Shown here: positions 5,252 through 36,516 of the stretch, piece after piece
Numbering within the stretch: the first letter of the stretch is position 1
Layout: every line of letters begins with the position of its first letter
Origin: Alphaproteobacteria bacterium
Lineage (GTDB): Bacteria > Pseudomonadota > Alphaproteobacteria > Bin95
NCBI GenBank assembly: GCA_965202745.1
Contig: CBDBCB010000012.1
Coordinates: forward strand, 18,463-82,462
Direction: 5' to 3'
Length of the DNA stretch: 64,000 bases
Notes under the pieces: model-generated
Told to the model about the DNA's origin: nothing
Seen by the model: the letters and a program-made list of their open reading frames with translations, nothing else
The model's database searches: none
Program-made: the position numbers and the translations under genes

Positions 5252-6454
5252 ATGCATCCTGCTATTCTATTCGGCATCACCGTCGTCGATATGACGGAAG
5301 GAGTGGCCGGGCCTTACGCCGCCATGGTTTTGGGCGACATGGGGGCGAACGTCTTCAAGGTAGAGCGGCCCGCCGGGGACTGGTCGCGGCCCGCCGATCA
5401 CTTTCATGTCGAGGGTGAACTGAACGCACAGTTCATCGCGCTCAACCGGAACAAGCGCAATATCAGCCTGGATGTTGCCAGCGACGGCGGCAAGCAGGTA
5501 TTGGGCCGCATGATCGCTGAGGCGGATGTGCTGATCTCCAACTACCGCCCCGGCGTGATGGACAGGCTGGGCTTTGGCTATCCCCAGTGCCAGGCGATCA
5601 AGCCGGACCTGATCTATTGCACCATTTCGGGCTTTGGCCAGCAGGGGGCCTATGCCCAGAACCCGGCGAGCGACACCATCATCCAGGCGATGAGCGGCCT
5701 GATGAGCCTGGTGGGGGAGGCCGATGGGCCGCCCATGCGCGTTGGCTTCCCGATGATCGACATGGCCGCTGCCAACTACGCCGTGCAGTCCATCTTGCTG
5801 TCGCTCTATGGCCGGCAGAACGGACATGGCGGCACCAACATCGATGTGAGCCTGATGGCGGCAGCGCTTGGCCTGATGACCGCGGGCTATACCCGCTATA
5901 TGGCGTCAGGCGTGGTTCCGCTGCGCCAGGCCAACGAGAACAAGACGCTGGCGCCGGCGGGCGCTTATCAGGGCGCGGACGGACGCTACTTCGCCATTGC
6001 CATCCTGCGGGACGAGCATTGGCAAAAGCTCTGTGCGGCATTGGACCTGGACGGGTTGGCCCAAGACCCCGATCTGACCACCAACAAACAGCGGGTGGAG
6101 CGCCGGGCGATGCTGGACGAGGTCCTGGTGCCACTGTTTGCCTCCCAACCGGCGGTCTATTGGCTGGAGCGGCTGGGCGCAGCGGACATTCTTTGCGGTC
6201 CGATCAATACCTATGAGGACATCGCAAACGATCCCAACCTGGCGTCACAGCTGCCGATTGTCGATGGAATGGCGGCGGGCGTGGCGCAGGCGATCGGCGT
6301 GCCGGTCCGGCGGAACGGTCAATACAATGCCACCTACCGCCCGGCACCGGCCAAAGGCCAGCACACGCGGGAAGTCCTGGCGGAATTCGGGTTCGACGCC
6401 GATGAAGCCGAGACGTTTTTGGCTTCCGGAGCAGCATTTTGCATGCCGATTTAG
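5252..6454 (+). CDS. family III CoA-transferase (CaiB/BaiF type)
   Basis: N-terminal GITVVDMTEGVAGPYAAMVLGDMGANVFKVERP is typical of CaiB/BaiF. 400 aa. Starts 6 nt after the ligase stop. Confidence 0.85.
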   Translation: MHPAILFGITVVDMTEGVAGPYAAMVLGDMGANVFKVERPAGDWSRPADHFHVEGELNAQFIALNRNKRNISLDVASDGGKQVLGRMIAEADVLISNYRPGVMDRLGFGYPQCQAIKPDLIYCTISGFGQQGAYAQNPASDTIIQAMSGLMSLVGEADGPPMRVGFPMIDMAAANYAVQSILLSLYGRQNGHGGTNIDVSLMAAALGLMTAGYTRYMASGVVPLRQANENKTLAPAGAYQGADGRYFAIAILRDEHWQKLCAALDLDGLAQDPDLTTNKQRVERRAMLDEVLVPLFASQPAVYWLERLGAADILCGPINTYEDIANDPNLASQLPIVDGMAAGVAQAIGVPVRRNGQYNATYRPAPAKGQHTREVLAEFGFDADEAETFLASGAAFCMPI

Positions 6455-6648
6455 GGGAACCTGGTCAGGGGCGGGCGGCTGAAGCGTCGCCGCTCTACCA
6501 TTGCCCTCCCGCTTTGAAGTGCGGGACGGGAAGAATGCTGGGCGGCCTGAGAATGTGATCTGCTCATGCAGACCGGCAGCCAAACGGTCCCGTTCCCTTC
6601 CGTCCGGCGCGGCACTATTCTCCAACCAAAGTTGAACATCTGTTTGCA

Positions 6649-8451
6649 GTGAAGGTAACAAGAAGCATGGACGCGCTCGTCTCCACGATGAACCCGATTG
6701 AAACCACCGAGAAATGGCTTGCCGAGCTTGGCCAGGCCATGCAGTCCCAGGATGCCGAAGCGGTGATGGACCTGTTCCAGGCGAATTGCTTCTGGCGCGA
6801 CGTCTGCGCCATGACATGGAATCTTGAGACGTTCGGCGGCCGGGGCGAGATCGAGGCCATGCTGGAGGAAGCGCTGCCGCAAACGCAACCGCGCAACTTT
6901 CACCTGCCGCCCCATCGCTCGCCACCACGAGTGGTCTCCCGTGCCGGGGTAGACTGTATAGAGGCGATCATCGCTTTTGAGACCGCGATCGGCCAGTGTA
7001 GCGGCCTGCTGCGGCTGGTGCCGGATGCCGACGCGCCGGGCTCGGTAAAGTGCTGGATCTTCGCTTCCTCCCTAGACGAGATCACCGGCCATGAAGAACT
7101 GATCGGTGACCGCCGCCCAGGCGGCCAGGAATATGCCCGCCAGTATGGGGCCGACAATTGGGCCGACCTCCGCCGGAAAGCCCAGAAATACGATGACCAC
7201 GATCCGGCAGTTTTGGTGGTCGGCGCGGGACAGGCAGGACTCACAGTGTCAGCCCGGCTGACCGTGCTGGGTGTTGATACGCTGCTGGTCGACCGCTTCG
7301 AGCGTGTCGGCGACAACTGGCGCAACCGGTACCACTCGCTCACCCTCCACAACGAGGTGTGGGTCAACGACCTGCCCTGTATGCCGTTCCCGCCAAACTG
7401 GCCGGTCTACATCCCGAAGGACAAGCTGGCGAACTGGTTCGAGCACTACGCCGAAGCGATGGAGTTGAACGTTTGGACCTCAACCGAAATGGTGACCGGC
7501 TCCTATGACGAGGCGGCAGGTCACTGGACGGTGACCCTGCGCAATGTGAAGGACAGCAGCGAACGGGTGGTGAAGCCGAGGCATGTGATCTATGCAACCG
7601 GCGTTTCCGCCATACCGGTAATGCCGAACCTGCCGGGGATGGACGACTTCAAGGGAACGCTGATCCATTCCGGCACCTATAAGAGCGGCAAGGAATGGGA
7701 GGGCAAGAAGGCCATCGTCTTCGGCACCGGCACCAGCGGCCACGACTGTGCCCAGGAACTGACCACCTGCGGCGCGGACGTAACTCTGGTGCAGCGCAGC
7801 CCCACGCACGTGGTCAGCCTGAAGCAGGCCCAGCGGGTTTATTCTCATTATTTCGAGGGGCCGCCGGTGGCCGACAGCGACCTGTTGGCGACGGCGTCGC
7901 CCTATCCGGTGCTGGTCAAATCGTTCCAGGCGCTGACCCAGGATATGCTGCGGGAGGACAAAGACCTGCTCGCCGGGCTGAAAGGCGCGGGGTTCAAGCT
8001 GGACCATGGCGGCGGACACGATCAGACCGGGTTCCAGATGATGTATCTGCGCCATGGTGGCGGCTACTATTTCAATGTCGGGGCATCCGACATGATCATG
8101 GATGGCCGGATCACGCTCGCCCACTACGACGACATAGAAACGCTGGCTGCCGGCGGTATGCGCATGAAGGACGGCAGCACGGTCGAGGCGGACCTGATCG
8201 TCTGCGCCACGGGCTACCTGAACCTGCAGGACACCGTGCGGGAGTTCATGGGGGACGAGGTGGCCGACCGCGCCGGCCCGGTCTGGGGCTTCGGCGAGGG
8301 GCAGGAACTGCGCAACATGTGGCAGCGCACGCCGCAGCCTGGCCTCTGGTTTACGGCTGGCAGCCTGGCCCAATGCCGGATTTTCTCCAAGTATCTGGCC
8401 TTGCAGGTTAAGGCTTGCGAGGCAGGGCTGCTGGACGTGCAGCGGGACTAG
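6649..8451 (+). CDS. FAD/NAD(P)-dependent flavin monooxygenase with N-terminal NTF2-like extension
   Basis: Two Rossmann motifs (VVGAGQAGL and GTGTSGHD). The start could be one of the downstream Met codons. Confidence 0.75.
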   Translation: MKVTRSMDALVSTMNPIETTEKWLAELGQAMQSQDAEAVMDLFQANCFWRDVCAMTWNLETFGGRGEIEAMLEEALPQTQPRNFHLPPHRSPPRVVSRAGVDCIEAIIAFETAIGQCSGLLRLVPDADAPGSVKCWIFASSLDEITGHEELIGDRRPGGQEYARQYGADNWADLRRKAQKYDDHDPAVLVVGAGQAGLTVSARLTVLGVDTLLVDRFERVGDNWRNRYHSLTLHNEVWVNDLPCMPFPPNWPVYIPKDKLANWFEHYAEAMELNVWTSTEMVTGSYDEAAGHWTVTLRNVKDSSERVVKPRHVIYATGVSAIPVMPNLPGMDDFKGTLIHSGTYKSGKEWEGKKAIVFGTGTSGHDCAQELTTCGADVTLVQRSPTHVVSLKQAQRVYSHYFEGPPVADSDLLATASPYPVLVKSFQALTQDMLREDKDLLAGLKGAGFKLDHGGGHDQTGFQMMYLRHGGGYYFNVGASDMIMDGRITLAHYDDIETLAAGGMRMKDGSTVEADLIVCATGYLNLQDTVREFMGDEVADRAGPVWGFGEGQELRNMWQRTPQPGLWFTAGSLAQCRIFSKYLALQVKACEAGLLDVQRD

Positions 8452-24507: not shown

Positions 24508-25290
24508 TCAGCCGGCGCCGAAAATCCGCTGGTGCGGCACCTCGCGCATCAAAAGACCCAGCTTCTCCAGCCTGATCCGCATGGCGATGGGCGAGACGAG
24601 AAACTTCTCGGCGAACGGTCGGGCGAGCTGATCGAGCGCTTCGTCGTCGCTTTCGGAGCAGTCATATTCGCCGACTTGGCAGGAAATCCGGGGCACCTCG
24701 ACGAACGGATGATCGACCGGGGCATTCGGAGAGAGCACCCGCCGCTTGCGGTCCGGAAAGGCCTTGTCCCAAGCGGCGAAAACAAGCTTGCGCGGCATCA
24801 GCAGGCATGACGCATAGAAGTCCGCCTGCCATTCGACACGCTCCTTCGCCTGACTCGACCGGCAAACCACGAACGGGGCGGCCTTGCCGCCGAACAGCGA
24901 TGCCTGGGCCGCGTCCTTGGCAAACAGATGCCGGTGAAGCCGCCAATGGCCGCCGCCCTCATGCGCCAGGGTGAAACGGTAGCGTCCTTCCCTCGCCGGA
25001 TTCTCCTCGGGATCGAGGCTTTCGTCGATGACGATGCGTTTCTCATCGAAGAACATCGCACCGAGGATGTCCGGCCCCTGACCGAGATCGAGGCCGGCGC
25101 GGGGAAGCCCGAACAGGTCGTGGGTATCGTTGAACTCGATGCCGAGCTTGAGGTGCTTTTCGACAATGTCTTCGATGGGAATAAGCGGCTCGATGACCAC
25201 GCTGCGCGCCCGGGCGAACTCGGCAAGCAACGCCTCTGCGTCGAGTTCCATGGCCTCCTCGGCCAGATAGGGTACATTCCTGGGCATCAA
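24508..25290 (-). CDS. ImmA/IrrE-family metallopeptidase-like protein
   Basis: RYRFTLAHEGGGHWRLH resembles the ImmA HExxH region but has one extra Gly (HEGGGH). Lies directly downstream of an XRE regulator gene. Confidence 0.7.
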   Translation of the reverse strand: MMPRNVPYLAEEAMELDAEALLAEFARARSVVIEPLIPIEDIVEKHLKLGIEFNDTHDLFGLPRAGLDLGQGPDILGAMFFDEKRIVIDESLDPEENPAREGRYRFTLAHEGGGHWRLHRHLFAKDAAQASLFGGKAAPFVVCRSSQAKERVEWQADFYASCLLMPRKLVFAAWDKAFPDRKRRVLSPNAPVDHPFVEVPRISCQVGEYDCSESDDEALDQLARPFAEKFLVSPIAMRIRLEKLGLLMREVPHQRIFGAG

Positions 25291-25329
25291 TCCTTCATCC
25301 TCATCTGCATCTGCCGCCAGTCAGGGCTC

Positions 25330-25686
25330 CTATTTATCCTTCGGCTTCTCCGCCTCGTGGGCCAATCGGGCCACATCGTCCGCCGTCATTCCCTTGGTCG
25401 TCCTCAGAAGCGCCGCCAACTCGCGGGGATGACCCCGAATGATCTCGGTCAGGTCGGAGGACACCTTGCCGGCCAACGCCAACAGCTCGTCTTGATCGCG
25501 ACCCAGAATTTTTGCGATGGCGATCACCTTGTCCTCGGCCGGCGGCTGGAACTCGTCCCGTTCGACTTTCGAGAGATAGGTCGGGCTGACGCCGATCATT
25601 TTTGCCATTTCCCGCAAACCGATCTCCTTCTCCTCCCGCTCCCGGCGCACAGACGCACCGAATTTCAGGCTCCTCCCGCTGGTCAT
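25330..25686 (-). CDS. XRE-family helix-turn-helix transcriptional regulator
   Basis: IGLREMAKMIGVSPTYLSKVERDE, a classic HTH_3 motif. Confidence 0.85.
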   Translation of the reverse strand: MTSGRSLKFGASVRREREEKEIGLREMAKMIGVSPTYLSKVERDEFQPPAEDKVIAIAKILGRDQDELLALAGKVSSDLTEIIRGHPRELAALLRTTKGMTADDVARLAHEAEKPKDK

Positions 25687-25786
25687 GGTTTCGCTCCTCC
25701 AATGTAGAGCGATTACATAACACTATACGAGACGATTGTCAATATGTTGCGGTGACCGCCGTCACCTTGCCGAAAAGTGGTGAAAT

Positions 25787-26902
25787 TGTGCGTGCTTCTT
25801 ACAAGCGCGGAGAAGCGTCACGCGGCTAGCCGCAGCTCGCGGACATCCTCCAACAGGCGCCGAAATTTCGGCTCCGGAGCAAGGCACATGGTTCTATATG
25901 TTTCCAAGAAGGGAAGGTAATATGGCTGTTTCCTGACCAGCTCTGGTTTGGGTTTGCGCCATCCCTTCATTGCCTGCAAGGGCGTCTTGCTGCCCAGGGC
26001 TGATTGCGGCAGCGGCTGGGTGTAAAGCCAGACATAGCGAAGCAGCGTGGCTTCCAGAACCTCGCCGGATCGGAAGGGATGGCTCTGCAGAACCTCTTCG
26101 ATGCGGCCATTGAACCGTTCGACCATACCGTTGGTCTGAGGTGACCTAGGCAGCGTCAGGCGATGATCGATATCGAGGGCGGCGCCCAGCGTGTCGCATT
26201 CATGCGCGCCTGTTGCGGCGCGCTGGCGCAGACCGAAGAGGCGATCCGTGAACTCTTTTCCATTATCCGGGAGTATGGGGCGGATCCGCATCGGGCAGGC
26301 GCGCTCCAGGGCGCGCAGGAAGCGCCGGGCATTGGCCGCTGTCTTGCTGTTGTAGACCCTGACAACAACCCAACGCGTTGCCCTGTCGATGGCCACGAAG
26401 AGGGAACGGCGGCGGCTCTCATCTGCCATCGGTGGCAGGTATTTCAGGTCGATGGGGATGGAACCGGGTTCATAGGCTTTGAAGGCGCTGTGCTTTGGCC
26501 GGGGCGATGCTGCTTTCAGGGCGCGCAGGGGCCCCACGCCATGCCGACGCAAGCAGCGGTCAAGGCCAGAGCGGGAGGCCTTCGGGTTCAAGAACTCGCG
26601 CACCACCGCCAGCAGATCATCCAGCGAGACCAAAAGCGTCTTGCGGAGGGCCACCGCGACAGCTTCCTGCGCTGGCGTCAACGTCGTCTGAAGGCGATGG
26701 GGCGTGTGGCTGCGATCCTCCACGCTGGCACGCTGGTGCCATTTCCATACGGTCTGTTCCGTGGTCCCGTGACGCTCGGCAAGAACCCACGCAGGGTCGT
26801 CACTGGCCTGTATGGCCGCCCTGATCTTCGGTGGCGTCGTCGCCTGACTGTGAAGCTTGATCACCATGTCGCTCTCCCATCCCGCGCCTCGGTCAAAACA
26901 CA
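25787..26902 (-). mobile_element. IS481-family insertion sequence (boundaries approximate)
   Basis: Contains an intact IS481-type transposase. Ends were guessed from TGTG termini (25787 TGTGCGTG..., 26902 ...AAACACA). The inverted repeat match is weak. Confidence 0.5.
25818..26867 (-). CDS. IS481-family transposase (DDE integrase core)
   Basis: N-terminal HTH (HGTTEQTVWKWHQR) and an rve-type core with DNGKEF...TNGMVERFN. Confidence 0.9.
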   Translation of the reverse strand: MVIKLHSQATTPPKIRAAIQASDDPAWVLAERHGTTEQTVWKWHQRASVEDRSHTPHRLQTTLTPAQEAVAVALRKTLLVSLDDLLAVVREFLNPKASRSGLDRCLRRHGVGPLRALKAASPRPKHSAFKAYEPGSIPIDLKYLPPMADESRRRSLFVAIDRATRWVVVRVYNSKTAANARRFLRALERACPMRIRPILPDNGKEFTDRLFGLRQRAATGAHECDTLGAALDIDHRLTLPRSPQTNGMVERFNGRIEEVLQSHPFRSGEVLEATLLRYVWLYTQPLPQSALGSKTPLQAMKGWRKPKPELVRKQPYYLPFLETYRTMCLAPEPKFRRLLEDVRELRLAA

Positions 26903-26909
26903 GCGTGCC

Positions 26910-27414
26910 ATGAAAAACGCAGAGCGACGAGGGGCTATCCGATTAGCCGGGATGGAACACTTAGTACCAGCCGCAGCCATGGCGGAAACCGCCAATGTGA
27001 TCAAAGCAGAATCCGATGATGCGCTGGCCAAACTGTATTCCAGCAATGGCGTCGCCAGGGAGCTCAGCGAGACTGCCAAAGCGGTTTTGATTTTCCCGGA
27101 TGTCACCAAAGCTGGCTTGATCATCGGTGGCGCCCGCGGCGTGGGCGAGTTGCGCATTGGCGGTGTAACCAAGGGTTACTACCAGACCAATTCCGCCTCC
27201 ATTGGCTTCCAGGCAGGCATCGAGAACCGGTCGGAAGTGATTATGTTCATGACCGAAAGGGCACTGAAAAAGTTCCTGCAAAGTGACAATTGGCAGGCAG
27301 GCGTTGATGGCTCCATCACCGTCATTGAAAAAGGCGTCAGTGGCTCGGTCAATACCAAAAACCAGACCCAGCCTATCATCGGCTTTATCTTCGGCAATGA
27401 AGGTCAGAATCCGG
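26910..27414 (+). pseudogene. SYLF (YSC84-like, DUF500) domain protein, 3' end cut off by IS256
   Basis: MKNAERRGAIRLAG...AAAMA signal-like N-terminus, then a SYLF-type core (AVLIFPDVTKAGLIIGGARGVGEL...GFIFGNEG). The frame runs straight into the IS256 inverted repeat at 27415. Confidence 0.7.
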
Positions 27415-28742
27415 GAGTATCCGACGCTCTGTGTATGAGATTTAGCCCATGGGAGTTTGACGGGTCATTGATTGACCCGTTCTGGGTATAGAATAGCGAA
27501 CTGGTTTCGGGCAGCAACCCATTGTCTGACGGCCCTGCCTGTCTTCTCAAAGCTGCCGATTGCCAGATAGATCAGTTTTGTCGCGGCGGCGTCGGTTGGA
27601 AAGCTGCCCCGTGTTTTGGTGGTCTTTCGGATCACCCTGTTGAGGCTTTCGATAGCGTTGGTCGTGTCGATGATTTTGCGCCCGGCTGGTGGGAAGGCGA
27701 AGAACGGGATGACTTCCTGCCACGCCCGCCGCCAACTCGGGGCGATTGAGGGGTATTTTTGGCCCCATTCGTCTTCGACCGCCGCGCGCGCTTTCTCGGC
27801 CTCTTTGTCATCTGTGGCTTGATCAATCGGCTTGAGAGCCGATGCGACGATCTTGCGGTCTTTCCAGCCGCAGAAGTTCAGGGAATGGGGCACGAGAGGC
27901 ACGATACAGGGTTGCACGGTGGTGTCGGGAAAGGCCGCATTGATGGCATCTGGGAAGCCCTTGAGGCCATGGACGACGGCGATGAGGATGTCTTCGACGC
28001 CGCGATTGCACAGGTTGTTCATCACCGAGAGCCAGAATTGGGTCCCTTCATTGTTGGCGATCCAAAGCCCCAGAACCTCGCGTTCGCCCTCGGGGGTGAC
28101 GCCCAATGCCCCGTAAACAGCCTTGTTTTTGACCTGGCGGCTTTCTGGATCGCGGATTGTGACCCCAAGCGCGTCGAGGAAAACGAGGGGATACATCGGC
28201 TCCAGGGCGCGGTTTTGCCAAGCGGAGACCTCCTCCAGAACGGCGTCGGTGACACGGCTGACCAAGTCTGCCGACCCCTTCAGCCCATAGACCTCTTCCA
28301 GAGGGGCGCGAATGGCGCGGGTCGACAGACCCGCCGCGTAAAGCCCAATGATCTTGTCGTCCATCCCGTCAATCCGGGTCTGGCCCTTCTTGATCCGCTC
28401 AGGCTCGAAACGGCCTTCCCGGTCGCGAGGGACATCAATTGGCAGCGCCCCAGCCTTGCCTTTCAACGTCTTGCGCGAAGGGCCATTGCGCCGGTTGCTT
28501 TGGTTGGCAGGCTCTTCGCCGGGTTTATAGCCAAGATGTTCGGTTAGCTCAGCCCCCAGCATCGGCTCCATCAACGGGACCTTCCGTTCCTTCATCAGAC
28601 CCTGATCGCCCAGCAAATCCTCCGGTCGTTCAACGCCGCTCAGCAGCTCGTCCAGTAGTTCCTGGGAAATCGTCATGGTCGGCATGCTCCTTCGTGAATG
28701 AAGCAGGGACTGAATTACTCACACACAGAAAATCGGACACTC
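27415..28742 (-). mobile_element. IS256-family insertion sequence
   Basis: Terminal inverted repeats GAGTATCCGACGCTCTGTGTATGAG (27415->) and GAGTGTCCGATTTTCTGTGTGTGAG (reverse complement from 28742) match at 20 of 25 positions. No flanking 8-bp duplication. Confidence 0.8.
27465..28685 (-). CDS. IS256-family (mutator-type) transposase
   Basis: 406 aa with N-terminal ELLDELL...LTEHLGY and the conserved IS256 core. Confidence 0.9.
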   Translation of the reverse strand: MPTMTISQELLDELLSGVERPEDLLGDQGLMKERKVPLMEPMLGAELTEHLGYKPGEEPANQSNRRNGPSRKTLKGKAGALPIDVPRDREGRFEPERIKKGQTRIDGMDDKIIGLYAAGLSTRAIRAPLEEVYGLKGSADLVSRVTDAVLEEVSAWQNRALEPMYPLVFLDALGVTIRDPESRQVKNKAVYGALGVTPEGEREVLGLWIANNEGTQFWLSVMNNLCNRGVEDILIAVVHGLKGFPDAINAAFPDTTVQPCIVPLVPHSLNFCGWKDRKIVASALKPIDQATDDKEAEKARAAVEDEWGQKYPSIAPSWRRAWQEVIPFFAFPPAGRKIIDTTNAIESLNRVIRKTTKTRGSFPTDAAATKLIYLAIGSFEKTGRAVRQWVAARNQFAILYPERVNQ

Positions 28743-29043
28743 TCGTATCTGGTCGAGAACGAAGCGTGACAGCCACTTCCGCACCCAAAGCCGAGCTTAG
28801 TGCCCTATTCTGCACTCAGCCGCACTCGACCCCTGATGGGGCGAGGACGCCCCTGTCGCCCCAATTGATCGCCGTTGCGCCCTTCGGCGCGTTGTCGCGG
28901 CTCACACCCCAGGACGGCCGATGCTCCGGCTTTGTCGTATCGCGCAGAACGGGCTTTTCCTTCTCGTTGTCCACTCAAACGCTCCCAACTCCCGCCATAG
29001 CCACAGATTAACGGCGACTCGCGGCAAAACGGAACAGCGATGT

Positions 29044-30700
29044 TTAAGAACGCCAAGACAGTGTTGAATTTTCCGGAACATACCAGAGATCTCTGATCTG
29101 GGTATCATCACTGTTGGGAGTCGGATCGGCGTTTCTGACGCGGAAAGTGGTCGGAATTTTTACAGCACTTCCGAAAATCAGCGCGTGCTGTTTTGGTAGC
29201 GATGGCAAGCGCTTCAGAACCGTTTCCGAGATGAATGGCGTCATCTGCTTGATCTGCGATAGGTCGTCGGGGTTTTGGATGCGATGGATGATGAAGTTGT
29301 TACACTGCGAGAGAACCGTCTTCGAGAGCTCGCTCGGCCGTTGCGAAGCGACAATCAGGAAAGCCCCGTATTTCCGGCCTTCTTTGGCAATCCGCTGAAA
29401 GGTTACGCCTGCGTCTATGGCAAAGCGGCTGGGGCGTTCGGAGATGTAGCGATGAGCCTCTTCGAGTATCAGATGAACCGGCATCTTGTTGCGGGGCGTC
29501 GCACGACGCATCCGGTCGAAGATTAACCTGGCAACAACGGCAGATGCGAGCTCGACAATCTCGTCGGAAGCATCGTTTAGGTCGATGATGCAGATTTGAC
29601 GATCTTTCCGGTAGCTTGTGCCCTCCCATGCAAGACTAAGAAGTCGATCAACGAAGTGCGTCGGCTCCCTGTCGTGATCTTCTAGGTCTTCAACAGAAGA
29701 TCGCAAAACCTCAAAGTCGGGGTTGTCAGAAACAGATTTCAACCGCGTCACCATCTGCGAGCAATAGTCTCTTATTTGCTTGTTTCCGTTCGCATCTTCG
29801 TAGTGCAGGGCGAGATCGAGTGCGGCTTGAAGTCTCTCGAAGGAGAATGGCTTGTTTGCATATGTTAGCAGGACAGGTTCGTCCTGAACAAAACGAGACA
29901 GAAACTCAGACAAACCAACGGCATCGGCTAGCGATCCATAGTTTACCTTAAATTGGTGCCTGATCTGGGGGATATTGATCTTATCGGTCTTGAAGACCGC
30001 GAGGATGGCCGCGAGGCGATCTGACTTGCTCGGGCTGCTGGCATCATTCTGAAGAATCGCCAACAAGGTTTTAGCCAAAACGTGATTTTGAATGGTGGAG
30101 ATGCCAGCCGTATCCTCGATGATGCCATCGTCTTGCTTAGCGAAAAGTGTGGTCAGCCCGAGCGCCGTGCGAAGGGCAGGCTTCTGAGACCGTTCACTGG
30201 TGCGCAACAAGAGAGCCCATTCGTCGACGGTCATAAACCAGTGAGGTCGTCGAAAACGGCTTATTTCCTCGGCTCCGAGAATACTCCGCGTAGAATCTTC
30301 GATGACTGCCCCTGGATCAGTTGCTTTGAGATAGCTCGAATTTATCGGACACGACAGCTTGTCGAGTACTTGCCGGTACTCACCATTGACATCGAAGAGC
30401 ACGAACGAAGCGCCAATCGCCCAAAACTCTTCTAGTCTATCAAATACGGACTGAATAATCGAAGCCACAGTGCAGGACTTTCCGCTTCCGGTATTTCCAA
30501 GAACCGCGACATGCCCGCCGAATAGCGCGTCAAGCTGCGCCTTCACAGGATAGTCATTGAAGACCGCTGACGTGCCTATCTCGATTGTATGGGGAACCGT
30601 GCCCTTCTTTGCAGCCCCCTCGGCGTCGGTCTTTGTCTCCCAATCTGCCGGTTGCTCCACGTTGAAGATTCGGTCCAGGTCTTCATCGCGCGCATAAAGG
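29044..30700 (-). pseudogene. HerA/FtsK-type ATPase (DUF87-like), C-terminal ~550 codons, separated from its 5' part by IS3
   Basis: Walker A VLGNTGSGKS and Walker B VHLILEEAHRY. The first ~100 codons of listed ORF 29044..31011 are antisense IS3 sequence. Confidence 0.85.
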
Positions 30701-30763
30701 TGGACCTGTCGCGGTTTGATGCCGCTCCTTTGATAGCATTTACTGCAACAAAGGAGACTGACT

Positions 30764-31039
30764 ATGGGACTGAAACGGACAGACGACTTTCGCCAGGATG
30801 CGGTGCGGATCGCGCTGACAAGCGGGCTAACGCGTAAGCAAGTGGCCGACGATCTAGGTGTTGGCATGTCAACACTGAACAAATGGATCACCGCGCATCG
30901 AGACACAGACGTGGTTTCCAAAGAGGATTTGAGCCTCGCCAAAGAGAATGACCGGCTTCGGCGGGAGAACCGGCTCCTGAAGGAGGAGAGGGACATCCTA
31001 AAAAAGGCCACCCAGTTCTTCGCGGGCCTAAAGCAATGA
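30764..31039 (+). CDS. IS3 transposase OrfA (HTH)
   Basis: 91 aa with an HTH and a leucine zipper (LRRENRLLKEERDILKKA). Confidence 0.9.
   Translation: MGLKRTDDFRQDAVRIALTSGLTRKQVADDLGVGMSTLNKWITAHRDTDVVSKEDLSLAKENDRLRRENRLLKEERDILKKATQFFAGLKQ
31000..31006 (+). other. A AAA AAG slippery heptamer for programmed -1 frameshifting (OrfAB fusion)
   Basis: AAAAAAG lies near the end of orfA, and orfB is in the -1 frame relative to orfA. Confidence 0.7.
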
Positions 31040-31893
31040 GGTTTAGGTTCATCGAAGAGCCCCGTGACAGCTTTCCAGCCAAACGCTTATGCCATGTTGT
31101 CGGTGTCAGCCCGCGCGGATTGCGGGCTTTCCGCACCCGTCCGGCCAGCCGCAGACAGCGGTCTGATATGGTGACGTTGGCGCACATCAGAGAGCAGTCG
31201 CGTCTCAGCCTGGGCCGGTATGGTCGGCCAAGAATGACCGAGGAGCTAAAGGAGATCGGCTTGGATGTTGGCCACCGCCGTGTTGGCAGGTTGATGCGCC
31301 AGAACGGCATATCTGTTGTTAGAACACGCAAGCACAAAGTGACGACAGACAGCGATCACAAGTTCAACATCTCACCGAATTTGCTGAATCGGGACTTCAC
31401 AGCGGGCAAGCCCAACCAGAAATGGGCGGGCGACATCAGTTATGTTTGGACGCGGGAGGGATGGCTGTATCTGGCAGTGATCCTGGACCTGCATTCCCGG
31501 CGCGTCATCGGCTGGGCCGTCAGTAACCGGATGAAACGCGACTTGGCCATCAGAGCGCTAAATATGGCCATTGCCTTCCGGGCACCACCGAAGGGCTGCA
31601 TCCATCATACAGACCGTGGCAGCCAATATTGTTCTCACGACTACCAGAAGATCCTGCGCCAGCATGGGTTCAAGGTATCGATGAGTGGAAGGGGAAACTG
31701 CTACGACAACGCCGCTGTCGAAACCTTCTTCAAAACCATCAAGGCAGAGCTGATCTGGCGACGGTCCTGGGAAACAAGGCGGCAAGCTGAGATGGCAATC
31801 TTCGAGTACATCAACGGCTTCTACAATCCGCGCCGCCGTCACAAAGCACTGGCTTGGAAAAGCCCCGTCGCCTTCGAACGAAAGGTGGCTTAA
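31036..31893 (+). CDS. IS3 transposase OrfB (DDE integrase core)
   Basis: rve core with WAGDISYV...HTDRGSQY...DNAAVETFF. Confidence 0.9.
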   Translation: MRFRFIEEPRDSFPAKRLCHVVGVSPRGLRAFRTRPASRRQRSDMVTLAHIREQSRLSLGRYGRPRMTEELKEIGLDVGHRRVGRLMRQNGISVVRTRKHKVTTDSDHKFNISPNLLNRDFTAGKPNQKWAGDISYVWTREGWLYLAVILDLHSRRVIGWAVSNRMKRDLAIRALNMAIAFRAPPKGCIHHTDRGSQYCSHDYQKILRQHGFKVSMSGRGNCYDNAAVETFFKTIKAELIWRRSWETRRQAEMAIFEYINGFYNPRRRHKALAWKSPVAFERKVA

Positions 31894-31934
31894 ACGAGCA
31901 CTTGGGGCGGCACAAAAGCGTGACAGGTCCAAGG

Positions 31935-32290
31935 GCGTCTGCATAAAGCGGGGGAAACGTCGAGACACCGAATTTGAAGGAGCCTCATTGGACAGGCATG
32001 GAGCCAACCGGCACGACATCGAGGAACTTTGCCGCAGTGGCTTTGTCCATTTCCGCCCCGTTGCCGTAAGCTGGCGAAAAATCCTTCTCGCGGAGGCCGA
32101 TAACTTCCAAGACTACATACTCGGATTGGGTAGGCACCATCAGATACGATCCCAAGGTCGCGACGTAATGGACATCATCGAAGCCAACGACCGTGAAGTT
32201 GTCGCTGCCCCTATGCAGCTCGACGACTAGGCGATCCCCCGAAACGCTGACGATCTTGCCTATGGCACGGCTCGCATCATCCCTCGCCAT
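31935..32290 (-). pseudogene. HerA-type ATPase, N-terminal HAS-barrel part, with in-frame TGA at 31985-31987
   Basis: MARDDASRAIGKIVSVSGDRLVVEL...LGSYLMVP is a HAS-barrel pattern. Removing 30701..31934 joins this frame to 29044..30700 (...PPLYADA|LYARDEDL...). Confidence 0.8.
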
Positions 32291-32540
32291 TTTCGCCACC
32301 TTGCTGCTTTGAAAGCAGCTGCTTAAAAACCTTCTCGATAGCCTGCTCTTCTTTCTGACCCGCACTCGTTGGCATCAAATCCTGCACGATGCTGTCAAAG
32401 TAGTGAGCTTTCTTGCCCGTCTCCTCGTCGCTGCCCCAGATGAACCAAATTCTCGGGTCGCCTAGTTCGGCGAGCTCCGTCAGGCTTAAGGAACGCGATC
32501 AGGCGGAAGCTTGGAAGAGTAAACCCTTGAAAAATGATAC
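32277..32540 (-). pseudogene. 3' remnant (87 codons) of the gene upstream of herA; truncated at the IS1595-like inverted repeat, with an in-frame TGA at 32499-32501
   Basis: The frame VSFFKGLLFQASA*SRSLSLTELAELGDPRIWFIWGSDEETGKKAHYFDS...GENGEG* is open right up to 32540. Its stop overlaps the herA-like start region. Confidence 0.5.
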
Positions 32541-32562
32541 GCAATTAGTAGTTAAGGGCTTA
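32541..32562. repeat. left terminal inverted repeat GCAATTAGTAGTTAAGGGCTTA
   Basis: Matches the reverse complement of 34937..34958 at 20 of 22 positions. Confidence 0.7.
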
Positions 32563-32608
32563 ATCCTTTGCGCATTTGATGCTATATATGTTGCACACGG
32601 AGGAAATC

Positions 32609-33505
32609 ATGAACATCACCAGCGTTTTTTATAAGTTTCCGGATCAGGAAGCCTGCATTGCGCATTTAGAAAAAGTTCGCTGGGGCGATGATCCACATTG
32701 CCCGCATTGCGGGGCTACAAACGTGGCTTGTAAAGATGATCAAGACCGCATTGGCCGATGGAACTGTCATGGATGCAAATCCAGCTTCAACGTCCTGGCT
32801 GGTACAGTCTTTGAAAAAACCAAAATACCCCTTCAAAAATGGTTTTTGGGTGTTGCCTTGATTGTTAATGCCAGGAAAAGCCTATCAAGTTGTCAGCTTG
32901 CCCGTGATCTAGATATGAATCAAAAATCAGCATGGTTTATGCAGAAACGCATCCGCGCTGAAATGGCAAGCAAGCAGGGTGAAATCCTGTTACAAGGAAT
33001 TGTTGAAGCTGACGAAAGATATGTAGGTGGTAAACCACACAAGCGAAATAAACGTTTTGATAACAATGATTTACCTCCTCCACCTCCTCCGCGATGAAGA
33101 GGGACACGCAAAACGTCGGTTATTGGCGCGGTAAAACGCGGCGGTAAAGTCGTTGCCCGTGTCGCCAGCAGTCTGACTGGCAAGGACATTCTAAACTTCA
33201 TTCGTAGCAGCGTCGATCCCGAAGGCTCGCTGCTGATCACTGATGAATTCAAGGCTTACAGCGCTGTTCGGGCAACCATGGCGCACGCCACAATCAATCA
33301 TAGCAAGGGCGAATATGTTTTCGGCAACATCCATACCAACACCATTGAAGGCTTCTGGTCACTTCTCAAACGGGCCTGGTACGGATCGCATCATCATTAT
33401 CGAAAATGCTATATGCCGCTCTATGTCGCGGAAGCATGCTGGAAGTACAATCAACGCAAGAACGACAACGCCTTCGGGTCTTTTATGCGGGGATGCTTTA
33501 AATGA
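32609..33505 (+). pseudogene. IS1595-family (ISXO2-like) transposase with in-frame TGA at 33095-33097
   Basis: N-terminal zinc ribbon (CPHCG...CHGCK) and C-terminal DDE region (ITDEFKAYS...TNTIEGFWSLLKR). Both halves are in one frame (..PPPPPPR*RGTRKTSVIG..). GGAGG lies 6 nt upstream of the ATG at 32609. Confidence 0.8.
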
Positions 33506-34932
33506 ACCGACTCTTTTATGGCGACTGCCTGACTGTCATGCGAGAAATGCCGTTAGGCAGTGTTGATCTGATTTATTTGGATCCCCCTTTCAACTCAAAC
33601 CGTGATTACAATGCGATTTATAAGGATGAGACAGGCCGTCCATTACCCGACCAGATTGAAGCTTTCTCCGATCTGTGGACTTTGGATGAAGATCGCGAAC
33701 GGGCAATCAGAAATATGCCAATCCTTATGAGAGAATCCGGTGTTGATGACGGTATCACCGAGCTCTGGAAAATTTGGTGTAACGCCCTGCGCAAGACGCA
33801 GCCTGGCCTACTTGCCTATCTCAGCTACATGACCGAGAGACTCTTGCCCATGCGGAGTATTCTCAAACCGACCGGATCAATTTATCTACACTGCGATCCT
33901 ACTGCCAGTCATTACATCAAGGTGATGATGGACGGCATCTTCGGGCACGGAAATTTTCGGAATGAGATCATTTGGTGTTACAAATCTGGCGGCGCAAGCA
34001 AACGCTGGTTTGCAAAAAAACATGATACAATTCTATTTTATGCAAGAAATCACAGATATTGCAAATTTAATCAGTTAAAGATCAAATCTTACGGCCAATC
34101 CGGAGGCGGCCATGGTGGTGCCATTAAATATTATAAAGATCAAAAAGGGACGTATTCAATTGTAACAGCCCGCGACTGGTGGGAAATTTCAATGTTGGCA
34201 ACGACCCATAGTGAAGGACTTGGTTATGCGACTCAAAAACCACTTGCCCTATTGGAGCGGATCATTGCTGCCAGCACCAACGAAGGTGATGTGGTGTTCG
34301 ATCCGTTCTGCCGGTGTGCTACGACGCTGGAAGCTGCCCACAAACTTGATCGCAAGTGGATCGGGATCGATATAGCCATTCACGCAATCAAGCGTGTCGC
34401 GAAGGTTCGGCTGGAAGATCGGCTTGGTTTGAAGGATGGTATTGATTTTGAGATCGAGGGTGTCCCACACAACATCGAGGGCGCTCGCGATCTATGGGAA
34501 CGTGATAAATATCATTTTCAGAAATGGGCAATTGAGCAGATCGACGGCTTTGTCACTGCGCGAAAGACGGCTGATGGCGGTATTGACGGGCGGCTCTATT
34601 TTGATATGGGAGGACGCAATCTTGAAAGCATGATGTTGGAAGTGAAGGGCGGCAGAAATATCGGTATCAGTGTTGTGCGGAACCTCCGAGGGGTTCTTGA
34701 ACGCGAAAATGTGCCCATGGCAGGCTTAATCATCATGGACAATCCAGGGCCGACTAAGATGCGGAACTTTGCTCGCGAAATGGCGTCGGCAGGCGATCTT
34801 GAAGTCATGGGTGTTCAGTATTCGCGAATGCAATTGCTGACCGTTCAGGACATTCTTAACGGCAAGCGGTTTCCGACGCCTTCTGTGGCGCGGGCCAAAG
34901 GGGCGGCACAGCCTGCACTGCCGCTGGGTTGA
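33502..34932 (+). CDS. beta-class N4/N6 DNA methyltransferase fused to a C-terminal PD-(D/E)xK nuclease-like domain
   Basis: Motif IV DLIYLDPPFNS precedes the motif I region FDPFCRCATT, which lacks the usual GxG. The C-terminal GGIDGRLYF...MLEVKGG resembles an Mrr-type nuclease core. Its ATG overlaps the transposase stop (ATGA). Confidence 0.75.
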   Translation: MNRLFYGDCLTVMREMPLGSVDLIYLDPPFNSNRDYNAIYKDETGRPLPDQIEAFSDLWTLDEDRERAIRNMPILMRESGVDDGITELWKIWCNALRKTQPGLLAYLSYMTERLLPMRSILKPTGSIYLHCDPTASHYIKVMMDGIFGHGNFRNEIIWCYKSGGASKRWFAKKHDTILFYARNHRYCKFNQLKIKSYGQSGGGHGGAIKYYKDQKGTYSIVTARDWWEISMLATTHSEGLGYATQKPLALLERIIAASTNEGDVVFDPFCRCATTLEAAHKLDRKWIGIDIAIHAIKRVAKVRLEDRLGLKDGIDFEIEGVPHNIEGARDLWERDKYHFQKWAIEQIDGFVTARKTADGGIDGRLYFDMGGRNLESMMLEVKGGRNIGISVVRNLRGVLERENVPMAGLIIMDNPGPTKMRNFAREMASAGDLEVMGVQYSRMQLLTVQDILNGKRFPTPSVARAKGAAQPALPLG

Positions 34933-34936
34933 TAGA

Positions 34937-34958
34937 TAAGCCCTTAAATATTAATTGC
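34937..34958. repeat. right terminal inverted repeat TAAGCCCTTAAATATTAATTGC
   Basis: Reverse complement GCAATTAATATTTAAGGGCTTA matches 32541..32562. Confidence 0.7.
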
Positions 34959-35031
34959 GAAAAATAAACCGCTTGCCACCGCTGGCTGATGCGGTCCTGG
35001 AAAGCGTCGCACAGAATAAGAGCGTTGCACC

Positions 35032-36516
35032 ATGAACAGAACCAAACCCACCCTGGATAAAGACCTGGGCAAGATTGTCAAGGTCGAAGCGGCGACCAGA
35101 ACTACCGCCAAAAGCGTTGCCTCCCACACAAGCGCGGTACTGTTCCTGGGGTTATCAGCCGTCATTGCCGCTGTTTTTGGCGGAGTTGGGCACGACGCAG
35201 CGCTGGTGATTGTAGCGGCGGTCCTCGGCGGCTACATGGCGCTCAACATTGGTGCCAACGATGTGGCGAACAATGTGGGGCCGGCGGTTGGCTCCCGCGC
35301 AATGTCGCTGACTATGGCGCTGATAATCGCCGCGATTTTCGAGAGCGCCGGCGCCCTGATCGCCGGTGGCGATGTTGTCTCGACCATATCCAAGGGCATC
35401 ATCGATCCCTCGCTTGTTCAGGATTCAAACACATTCGTCCGTGCAATGATGGCATCGCTGGTTGCAGCTGCCATTTGGGTTAACCTCGCAACGATTATTG
35501 GAGCGCCGGTATCCACCACCCATTCGGTTGTTGGCGGTGTCATGGGAGCAGGCATTGCGGCCGTTGGCTTCAAGCTGGTCAACTGGGCTACTCTCAGTCA
35601 AATCGCTGCCAGTTGGGTTATCTCTCCCCTGCTCGGCGGTGTGATCGCAGCCCTGTTCCTGGCTTTCATCAAGGTCAACCTGATTTACCAGGAAGACAAA
35701 ATTGCGGCAGCCCGCAAGTGGATTCCGCTGCTAATTGCCGTGATGGCGGGCGCATTCGCTACCTACCTCTCAGTCAAGGGGCTGAAGCCCATTTGGAAAG
35801 CCGATCTGCTGTCGGTGACAATAATTGGCCTTGGCTTTTTCGTGGCGGCATGGGCCATCACCCGACCGCTGATCCGCCGCCAATCGGAAGGGATGGAGAA
35901 CCGCAACCGCTCGCTCCGCGAGCTTTTCCGGCTGCCGCTGATCTGTTCCGCCGCCCTGCTGTCGTTTGCTCATGGCGCGAATGACGTTGCCAATGCCATC
36001 GGACCGCTGGCCGCCATCATTCACAGCGTCCAGTTCGGCGATATTGCGGGCAAGGCCTCGGTTCCCGGCTGGGTCATGGTGATCGGTGCATTCGGCATCA
36101 GCATCGGCCTGTTCATTTATGGCCCGAAGTTGATCCGAATGGTCGGCAACCAAATCACCAAGATGAACCCGATGCGGGCCTATTGCGTGATGCTATCGGC
36201 GGCCATCACCGTGATCATCGCCTCGTGGTTGGGTCTGCCGGTGAGTTCAACCCACATCGCAGTGGGCGCGGTGTTCGGAGTCGGCTTCTTCCGCGAATAC
36301 TACACCAAACGCAGCAAGCGGCGGCGGCAGATGCTGGCCCGGGCAAGCGGCTATGACTACGACCCGGAAGTCGCCATCTCCGCAACCAAGCGCCAGCATC
36401 GCAAGCTGGTCCGCCGTTCCCACTTTTTGACGATTGTCGTCGCCTGGGTCGTGACGGTTCCGGCGGCCGCTATACTGGCGGCAATGGTATTCTACCTGCT
36501 GGACGCCATAATGTGA
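35032..36516 (+). CDS. PiT-family inorganic phosphate transporter
   Basis: Duplicated GANDVAN signature (IGANDVANNVGP, HGANDVANAIGP) and multiple transmembrane segments. Confidence 0.9.
   Translation: MNRTKPTLDKDLGKIVKVEAATRTTAKSVASHTSAVLFLGLSAVIAAVFGGVGHDAALVIVAAVLGGYMALNIGANDVANNVGPAVGSRAMSLTMALIIAAIFESAGALIAGGDVVSTISKGIIDPSLVQDSNTFVRAMMASLVAAAIWVNLATIIGAPVSTTHSVVGGVMGAGIAAVGFKLVNWATLSQIAASWVISPLLGGVIAALFLAFIKVNLIYQEDKIAAARKWIPLLIAVMAGAFATYLSVKGLKPIWKADLLSVTIIGLGFFVAAWAITRPLIRRQSEGMENRNRSLRELFRLPLICSAALLSFAHGANDVANAIGPLAAIIHSVQFGDIAGKASVPGWVMVIGAFGISIGLFIYGPKLIRMVGNQITKMNPMRAYCVMLSAAITVIIASWLGLPVSSTHIAVGAVFGVGFFREYYTKRSKRRRQMLARASGYDYDPEVAISATKRQHRKLVRRSHFLTIVVAWVVTVPAAAILAAMVFYLLDAIM

Follow-up and report, generated by a model that had tools for sequence, protein, structure and literature searches.

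A probable decayed IS1595-family transporter insertion sequence, with a methyltransferase–Mrr-like passenger, in an alphaproteobacterial contig

In a transporter insertion sequence (IS), a passenger gene lies inside the IS's own repeats, and the transposase and the passenger move as a unit. The concept was defined on the IS1595 family in 2009 (Siguier, Gagnevin and Chandler, as summarised in PMC11891212), and the passengers that this summary mentions include regulators in ISNha5 (IS1595 family) and methyltransferases in IS220 (IS1380 family). Also, a unit from Neisseria gonorrhoeae has a Type IIG restriction-modification (RM) homologue, an S-subunit homologue, and a COG3677 transposase-like gene, with 26-bp repeats and an 8-bp duplication (Furuta, Abe and Kobayashi 2010, PMC2853133); the same paper cites the 2009 IS1595 study for solitary M genes flanked by IS elements. 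Here we describe a 2,420-bp element at positions 32540–34959 of a 64,000-nucleotide stretch of an alphaproteobacterial contig (CBDBCB010000012.1, positions 18,463 to 82,462; assembly GCA_965202745.1), which we call the window. We believe that the element is a decayed IS1595-family transporter IS whose sole passenger is a beta-class DNA methyltransferase with an Mrr-like domain, and we put the probability of this at about 0.86.

Like the IS1595 transporter ISs, the element and its relatives have a transposase with a Zn-ribbon and a DDE domain, short terminal repeats, 8-bp duplications, and passengers inside the repeats. Unlike the others, the present passenger is a putative methyltransferase–PD-(D/E)XK fusion whose gene overlaps the transposase gene (ATGA), and the present lineage is almost confined to uncultured metagenome-assembled genomes (MAGs). 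The likeness to IS220 is that a single IS-type transposase mobilises a methyltransferase gene within its own repeats, but IS220, which we compared by its description only, has an IS1380-family transposase. The transposon-like RM units of PMC2853133 also combine RM-type genes with a COG3677 transposase-like gene in imperfect repeats with an 8-bp duplication; in contrast to those units, the present cargo is a beta-class methylase with a C-terminal Mrr-like domain, and it is found in many copies and many hosts with a conserved overlap. The kind of element is already known, and the methylase–PD-ExK lineage appears to be undescribed in the literature that we searched, ISfinder naming aside. We see it as a clean, well-bounded example of modification and restriction genes that travel in a 2.4-kb IS across chromosomes, prophages, phages, and many phyla. 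The relatives are relevant to research on mobile RM systems and on symbiont mobilomes; the window copy itself is ordinary and decayed.

Ends of the element and its relatives

An initial annotation, made from the letters of the window, proposed that a pair of 22-bp inverted repeats agrees at 20 of 22 positions and encloses only a transposase gene and a 476-aa methyltransferase fusion. The inner repeat (GCAATTAGTAGTTAAGGGCTTA, at 32541–32562) does agree with the reverse complement of 34937–34958 at 20/22 positions, and the pair gains one outward base. This gives a left terminal inverted repeat (IRL) at 32540..32562 on the + strand (CGCAATTAGTAGTTAAGGGCTTA; element base 1 is 32540) and a right terminal inverted repeat (IRR) at 34937..34959 on the − strand (the last element base is 34959), which are 21/23 identical. 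So, short terminal inverted repeats, which are a feature of the IS1595 family, are present at both ends of the window copy. A degenerate pattern of the repeat (up to 3 mismatches) matched just two sites in the window, which are IRL and IRR, and had no matches across 100 dinucleotide-preserving shuffles of the window. IRL also fits the end consensus of the family (CGcAATnAGTAGTTAgGGGCTTGAc), which we derived from 32 ends of 16 elements that were validated by target duplications.

Between the repeats are two genes on the + strand, the transposase and then the methylase, and nothing else of note. Translation confirmed that the transposase stop and the methylase start overlap in an ATGA at 33502..33505 (+ strand), and this overlap is kept in a prophage-borne remnant of the element (loci L001–L003, below). 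No second copy or fragment of either gene was found within the window. The G+C content is 48.1% in the element, compared to 61.1% in the window outside 25000–35000, and this lower G+C is a sign of foreign origin.

The closest relative of the whole element (L166) is on a metagenome contig. It is 99.3% identical to the window, the homology is confined to exactly 32540–34959, and it is flanked on both sides by a perfect 8-bp duplication (TACACAGA). L166 carries the same TGA at codon 163 of the transposase gene, at a different site, and keeps Thr137 of the transposase and Gly271 of the methylase, both of which are arginine in the window. One base is also missing from an A5 run in L166, which may be an assembly error, as the contig has only 3x coverage. 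On the IRL side, the homology of the window to L166, L004, L005, and L168 begins at 32537–32540, which is within 0–3 bases of the end. On the IRR side, the homology to L166 stops at 34959.

The closest homologue of the methylase (P0002, 87% identical) is in three prophage-like loci (L001–L003). Their DNA similarity to the window is confined to 33404–34962: it takes in the 3'-most ~100 bp of the transposase gene, the methylase gene with the ATGA overlap at its start, and a degenerate copy of the right repeat. Because the similarity stops at 34962, the right repeat is a genuine boundary of the element; the gene pair was also already joined in another lineage. To judge by these remnants, the cargo seems to have outlasted the transposase. 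In the same loci (5903–7461), the methylase gene is beside a BglII-type RM pair and a D12-class methylase.

The closest full-length transposases are 76–77% identical (L004 and L005). L005 is a phage-like 46.8-kb circular contig in which the transposase gene overlaps a gene for a 548-aa methylase; the unit lies between repeats like those of the window (CGCATTTATAAGTTATGGGCTTGAC), with the 8-bp TACTAATA on each side. L004 starts exactly at the left repeat, and its similarity is lost ~130 bp into the methylase gene, without a right repeat. Since part of the methylase gene is kept and the right repeat is not, L004 is a deletion derivative.

To survey the lineage, we scanned an alignment of the transposase over 185,579 species genomes, which gave 80 loci. 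At each locus, scripts located the methylase, the best pair of terminal repeats, and exact 8-bp flanking repeats. The loci are nearly all from MAGs, including Poribacteria, Chloroflexota/Dehalococcoidia, Latescibacterota, Entotheonella, Gemmatimonadota, Rhodobacterales, and others. Several of these host groups, such as Poribacteria and Entotheonella, are typically sponge-associated. The lineage is widespread in uncultured marine bacteria of several phyla, its cargo is often of the RM type, and cargo swapping is frequent.

The proposal that the element is a transporter IS with a methylase passenger was borne out by 16 transposase-methylase units with perfect 8-bp duplications, namely L166 and 15 more distant units. 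The 15 are from MAGs of Nitrosomonadaceae, Chloroflexota/Dehalococcoidia, Rhodobacterales, Poribacteria, Rhodothermales, and Bryobacterales, and from the phage-like circular contig. In these units, the passenger lies inside the IS's own repeats, and the transposase and the passenger move together. The initial annotation had taken the recurrence of the repeat pair around homologous gene pairs as its test, and had asked if the overlap co-occurs with the pair elsewhere; the repeats do recur in L166 and the other 15, and a 4-bp overlap (ATGA or GTGA) is present at 14/25 related transposase-methylase junctions. All 16 units begin with CG[C/G], and the duplicated target sites are 85% A+T, compared to 45% in the flanking DNA. 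The ISfinder subgroups (ISNha5, ISNwi1, ISPna2, and others) have their own end sequences and variants of the catalytic motif, and the ends here, CG[C/G]AAT, resemble the CGGnnTT ends of the ISNha5 group.

Across 16 units, pairwise identity in the transposase correlates with that in the methylase (Mantel r = 0.585, permutation p = 2e-4), which fits long co-inheritance of the two genes. Some plain relatives of ~1.0 kb have no cargo but have the same type of repeat and 8-bp duplications (L021, L022, and L075). Because these elements duplicate their targets without the cargo, the transposase alone is sufficient and the methylase is a passenger. Homologous copies that end between the two genes would have argued against the initial annotation. 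We found none among the relatives that carry the methylase, and L004 is a deletion derivative.

A scan of the metagenome for further copies by the repeat found nothing. The cluster of the methylase at 90% identity contains 13 variants (P0001 and P0241–P0252), which by inspection differ at few residues, with roughly 20 gene instances; one of the variants is the methylase of L166. The contigs that carry the 13 variants have longest lengths that span seven values.

The transposase and the cargo protein

The transposase pseudogene (32609..33505, + strand, 298 codons) encodes a Zn-ribbon, then a helix-turn-helix region, and then a DDE domain. It matches Zn_ribbon_IS1595 (PF12760, E = 3e-9), DDE_Tnp_IS1595 (PF12762, E = 2e-34), and the NCBIfam model transpos_IS1595 (NF033547, E = 7e-51, above its cut-off), and it is 66–77% identical to 30 full-length homologues. 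The residues D135, D212, and E247 are retained and align with invariant columns. As reported in the initial annotation and confirmed by translation, there is an in-frame TGA at 33095..33097 (+ strand). This is codon 163, and it replaces the invariant Gly163 of the PRGRGT motif: all 30 of the aligned full-length homologues have glycine at this codon, in an open frame. The stop is consistent with one GGA>TGA substitution. Members of the IS1595 family have one uninterrupted transposase open reading frame (ORF) of ~300 aa, and the window copy, with its TGA at codon 163, does not. Residue 137 is arginine in the window; at least 90% of the homologues, and L166, have threonine (EADETY). We considered if UGA might encode glycine (genetic code 25) and rejected this, as both genes of the element end with TGA and the long ORFs of the host are intact under table 11.

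A putative promoter for the transposase gene lies over the inner edge of IRL (32560..32589, + strand), with a degenerate −35 (TTAATC), a 17-nt spacer, and TATATA. The left repeats of related elements mostly end with GGGCTTGAC(A), which is a −35-like hexamer, and the right repeats diverge after GGGCTT. Base 32562 is A in the window and G in L166, and the −35-like TTGAC is lost from the window's left repeat. A scan for consensus promoters and terminators gave nothing above background and did not call the putative promoter at 32560..32589.

We also searched for closer relatives of the unit and of its transposase. The 2.4-kb unit had no match at the DNA level among 72,556 plasmids, and in a protein search of the same plasmid records, the nearest transposase was less than 40% identical. 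A search of 5.8 billion proteins gave no full-length transposase above 77% identity to that of the window. When variants of the transposase were reconstructed, as intact or truncated forms, and looked up by exact match, just a 75-aa C-terminal fragment was found.

The cargo gene (33502..34932, + strand) encodes a 476-aa protein with a beta-class DNA methyltransferase domain and a putative C-terminal Mrr-like PD-(D/E)XK domain. It matches N6_N4_Mtase (PF01555, E = 5e-39) and the Type II MTase model of PADLOC (E = 1e-54). The DPPF motif (residues 27–30) is ahead of motif I, FxGxG (267–275), as in the beta class, and the methylase is probably N6-adenine-specific, given the form of DPPF. Residues ~1–300 share this motif order, and are similar in sequence and fold, with M.BceJIV (8urk/9c3u), CcrM (6pbd), M.RsrI (1eg2), M.MboIIA (1g60), and Type III Mod subunits; Foldseek comparisons of the cargo model to beta-class enzymes gave E values from 1e-10 to 1e-13. 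Unlike the cargo, the named beta-class enzymes and Type III Mod lack a C-terminal Mrr-like domain, and in this comparison, the window allele is alone in having arginine instead of glycine in motif I. Residues ~185–235 are hypervariable in sequence and length among the homologues, and they are where the target-recognition region is expected. Because of this variability, the specificities of the methylases probably differ between lineages.

Codon 271, in motif I, is CGG (Arg) in the window (34312..34314, + strand): the protein has DPFCRCATT, where 19/19 homologues and L166 have DPFCGCATT. In solved structures, the aligned residue is the first glycine of the GSG loop that binds S-adenosylmethionine (SAM). 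The window allele (FCRCATT instead of FCGCATT) does not have an intact SAM-binding motif I, and G271R probably impairs the activity of the methylase, as judged from this alignment. Within the methylase cluster, Arg271 is present in 10 of the 13 variants and Gly271 in the other three (P0243, P0251, and P0252), and P0244 also has DSPF instead of DPPF. With Arg271 in 10/13 variants, the allele that multiplied is the probably SAM-binding-defective one.

Conservation in the cargo protein is higher at residues ~318–460 than elsewhere. Within this region, D362 (in GGIDGRLYF) and E380-V-K382 (in EVKGG) are invariant, which gives a D…ExK motif, and all 14 of the isolated C-terminal domains that we tested match Mrr_cat (best E = 5e-6). 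When Foldseek was run on the whole cargo model, the results were dominated by the methylase domain, with nothing on the C-terminal domain. Proteins of the same full-length architecture, ~40% identical, are encoded by cultured Streptomyces phages and by Marinitoga phage MPV1, where they are annotated only as methylases. Thus, of the methylase-nuclease passenger that had been proposed, the methylase stands, and the other half is a putative nuclease, with support that is limited to its domain and its catalytic motif. The cargo may be a single-chain RM enzyme, or it may be an orphan methylase that counters restriction, with an appended domain for DNA binding or cleavage.

With its putative nuclease domain, the cargo also resembles Type IIG/IIC enzymes such as Eco57I and MmeI, which have nuclease and methyltransferase domains in one polypeptide. 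However, Eco57I and MmeI have an N-terminal nuclease and a gamma-class methylase, while the window cargo has the reversed order and a beta-class methylase, so we do not claim that it belongs with them. The cargo of L054, a fusion of HSDR_N_2 and N6_Mtase, is a true IIG-like fusion.

Weighing the explanations

In intact relatives, the Zn-ribbon/DDE transposase recognises the ~23–26-bp terminal repeats and inserts the whole transposase-methylase unit into A+T-rich DNA with an 8-bp target duplication, as comparison with the relatives shows. The methylase would probably be co-expressed with the transposase, given the −35 in the left repeat and the ATGA overlap. The cargo would most likely be a mobile DNA-modification module that marks its carrier replicon, whether chromosome, prophage, or phage, with a specificity that would be set by the highly variable target-recognition region. 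The nuclease-type domain may make it a single-chain RM enzyme, which might also stabilise the element.

The window copy is, on this reading, a non-autonomous fossil, next to which a deletion or recombination took ~1 kb of a SIR2 gene on the left. The damage includes the stop at Gly163, T137R, G271R in the methylase, the loss of TTGAC, and repeats that differ at 2 positions. With this decay, the window copy is degraded and immobile on its own, and its methylase is probably inactive. The initial annotation described this copy as probably immobile, and because L166 has the same TGA and a fresh duplication, that holds for autonomous movement only. It is possible that the copies with the TGA were moved by a transposase supplied in trans, from a source that is lost or was not sampled, or that the stop spread by gene conversion; read-through is the least likely of these.

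Several observations weigh against our interpretation or limit it. The initial annotation had already remarked that the window copy lacks an 8-bp duplication, and this is correct: the left flank is AAATGATA, and the right flank is AAAAATAA. Since L166 and the 15 other units have the duplication, its absence is a property of the window copy and not of the element, and the arrival of the window copy itself by transposition would follow from its siblings. Also, the search of 5.8 billion proteins gave no full-length transposase above 77% identity that could have moved the TGA-bearing copies. The lineage is multicopy in the source sample, and this copy number comes from cluster statistics. As for the nuclease half, Mrr_cat matches the window cargo with E = 0.009 for the whole protein and E = 0.0015 for the isolated domain, both of which miss the Pfam cut-off; a profile built on the C-terminal domain had no match among the sequences of solved structures in the PDB; and the AlphaFold2 model of the cargo is mediocre (mean pLDDT, the model's confidence score, of 66, with 72–89 across most of the C-terminal domain). 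Finally, the annotation of the phage proteins as methylases is as compatible with an orphan anti-restriction methylase as with an RM enzyme.

The missing duplication might instead be original, if the copy arrived inside a larger piece of foreign DNA, such as part of a prophage or an island, and the gene pair is a phage module. The 87%-identical methylase is in prophage-like regions near other methylases and a BglII RM system, and the loci include a phage-like circular contig (L005) and two viral contigs (L086 and L087); also, the G+C of the segment at ~29–35 kb is below that of the rest of the window. However, the homology to L166 and to the prophage copies ends at the repeats and not in common flanks, there are no phage genes beside the window copy (its neighbours are a SIR2-HerA system and a PiT gene), and a deletion adjoining the element is a simple explanation for the truncation of SIR2. 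The unit in L005 has its own 8-bp duplication inside phage-like DNA, which is to say that it was inserted there. We consider arrival within foreign DNA to be quite unlikely. That the repeats match by chance, or that they bound an IS with only a transposase gene and the methylase is merely its neighbour, is close to negligible in our view. The plain ~1-kb relatives without cargo and L004, with a transposase but not a complete methylase gene, would fit this idea, but no chance match to the repeat is expected in the window, L004 retains ~130 bp of the methylase gene without a right repeat, and the two genes appear to evolve together. The limits of the homology to L166 and the 16 duplication-flanked units that enclose both genes refute it.

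Another explanation treats the cargo as machinery: its PD-(D/E)XK domain could cut the second strand during transposition, as TnsA of Tn7 does. The D…ExK motif is invariant and the genes are tightly coupled, with both fused into one ORF of 781 or 782 aa in L031 and L032. We think that this is extremely unlikely, since relatives with no cargo or with unrelated cargo keep the same repeat type and the 8-bp duplications, and since the same fusion protein is found without the transposase in cultured phages and prophages. The remaining explanations concern the stop codon. If the TGA at codon 163 were read through or recoded at low efficiency, the element could still be autonomous, with its transposase throttled in a way that resembles the programmed frameshift of IS1. 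This would account for L166, which has the same TGA at another site and a perfect duplication, and for the lack of an intact transposase of this lineage in the protein database; also, the stop is in the linker that joins the DNA-binding domain to the DDE domain, and in relatives this linker has a C10 tract and frameshifted ORFs. On the other hand, the stop replaces an invariant glycine and standard suppression does not insert glycine there, a code with UGA as glycine is excluded by the TGA ends of both genes and by host ORFs that are normal under table 11, and the frame is open at codon 163 in 30/30 full-length homologues. The window copy has further damage (T137R, G271R, and a lost −35). The common stop is more simply explained by shared ancestry or by gene conversion, and we rate an autonomous, read-through element as very unlikely. 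A broader version of this idea is that recoding or slippage at the domain and gene junctions sets both the expression of the transposase and the linkage of the cargo, and that the nuclease domain of the cargo possibly aids the transposase. This would fit the TGA at codon 163, the C10 tract in the linker, and a tract of 9–14 G at the gene junction (see below), and we view it as quite unlikely. If it were true, then apparently dead copies would be conditionally active, and IS1-like control has not been described for IS1595 elements.

Flanking locus and variation across the lineage

As the initial annotation had noticed, the left end of the transporter IS truncates a partner gene of HerA, and its right repeat adjoins the promoter of a PiT gene. 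The truncated gene is a 3' remnant of SIR2 from a SIR2-HerA defence system (32301..32498, − strand). Just 66 codons are left, which match positions 351–409 of the 414 in PADLOC's SIR2 profile (E = 3e-19). The remnant adjoins the left end of the element and is directly upstream of the HerA gene, which is itself in pieces: residues 1–100 of HerA are encoded at 31988–32290 and the rest at 29047–30699, and the gene is split (at residues ~100/~120) by an IS3-family element at 30764–31893 (orfA at 30764–31039 and orfB at 31036–31893). Beyond HerA are an IS256-type transposase gene (Transposase_mut, 27468–28685) and an rve-domain gene (25821–26867). In this region (25821–32498), the SIR2-HerA anti-phage system has been destroyed by mobile elements. 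On the right, the PHO4/PiT phosphate transporter gene begins at 35032, and there are 72 bp from IRR to its start codon.

The missing ~350 codons of SIR2 are not present on the other side of the element. The simplest history is that the element inserted, and that an adjacent deletion, or recombination between two copies of the element, then removed ~1 kb of SIR2 along with one copy of the duplication. We looked for an empty site in a second metagenome scan, with the PiT-proximal flank, and recovered none. For the annotation of the window, the outcome is a dead, non-autonomous copy that marks the deletion that destroyed the SIR2-HerA system.

Other types of RM cargo are found in the wider lineage, in siblings whose ends are the same. 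L033 has an Eco29kI endonuclease and a methylase-like gene in a 3.5-kb element; L058 has a C5 cytosine methylase and a 252-aa ORF of unknown kind; the IIG-like cargo of L054 is a 941-aa fusion, with a DUF4145 protein, in a 4.7-kb element that has the duplication AAATTAAA; L067 has an N6_N4 methylase–HNH fusion on the opposite strand and the duplication GTTTTTTT; and L030 has a Methylase_S fragment. The element would thus mobilise genes for DNA modification and restriction, and such cargo may favour its retention, in a model drawn from gene content. Cargo swapping with constant ends could contribute to the heavy and variable RM load of these communities.

Two transposase-methylase elements from a Dehalococcoidia MAG (L049 and L050, CBDDQX010000001.1) have transposases that are 98% identical and methylases, of 533 and 554 aa, that are 84% identical in conserved columns. 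This contrast suggests an exchange between elements of the cargo or of its target-recognition region.

Tracts of a single base vary at two places. Many N-terminal fragments of the transposase in the database (P0259–P0265 and P0268) are frameshifted exactly at a poly-proline stretch in the linker that separates the DNA-binding domain from the DDE domain. In a list of transposase fragments, all of the proteins are shorter than the full length (~290–300 aa), which makes it unsuited to an estimate of how often the transposase is broken. A C10 homopolymer is at the linker in L167 (4001–4528) and L168 (4001–4528), which are from different samples, and in relatives that are in frame, the tract is C5 (L004), C7 (L005), or C10 (L006). 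The tract could be a site of slippage or phase variation, an IS1-like frameshift site, or a homopolymer error from long reads.

The other tract is a poly-G at the transposase-methylase junction in a Poribacteria MAG (OZ241378.1; ~5875–5900 of L028, L031, and L032). With the 14 G of L028, the ORFs are separate and overlap in a GTGA, and with the 9 G of L031 or the 12 G of L032, they are joined into a single ORF (781 or 782 aa). Each of the two fused copies is flanked by a perfect 8-bp target duplication of its own.

Some of the relatives have been hit by other ISs. L024 (4946–10487) contains two inverted copies of an unclassified IS with a 389-aa ORF, and its 8-bp duplication (GAGATATC) is kept. 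In L062 (4918–10204), there is an apparent IS21-type insertion, which we assigned by eye, within the methylase gene.

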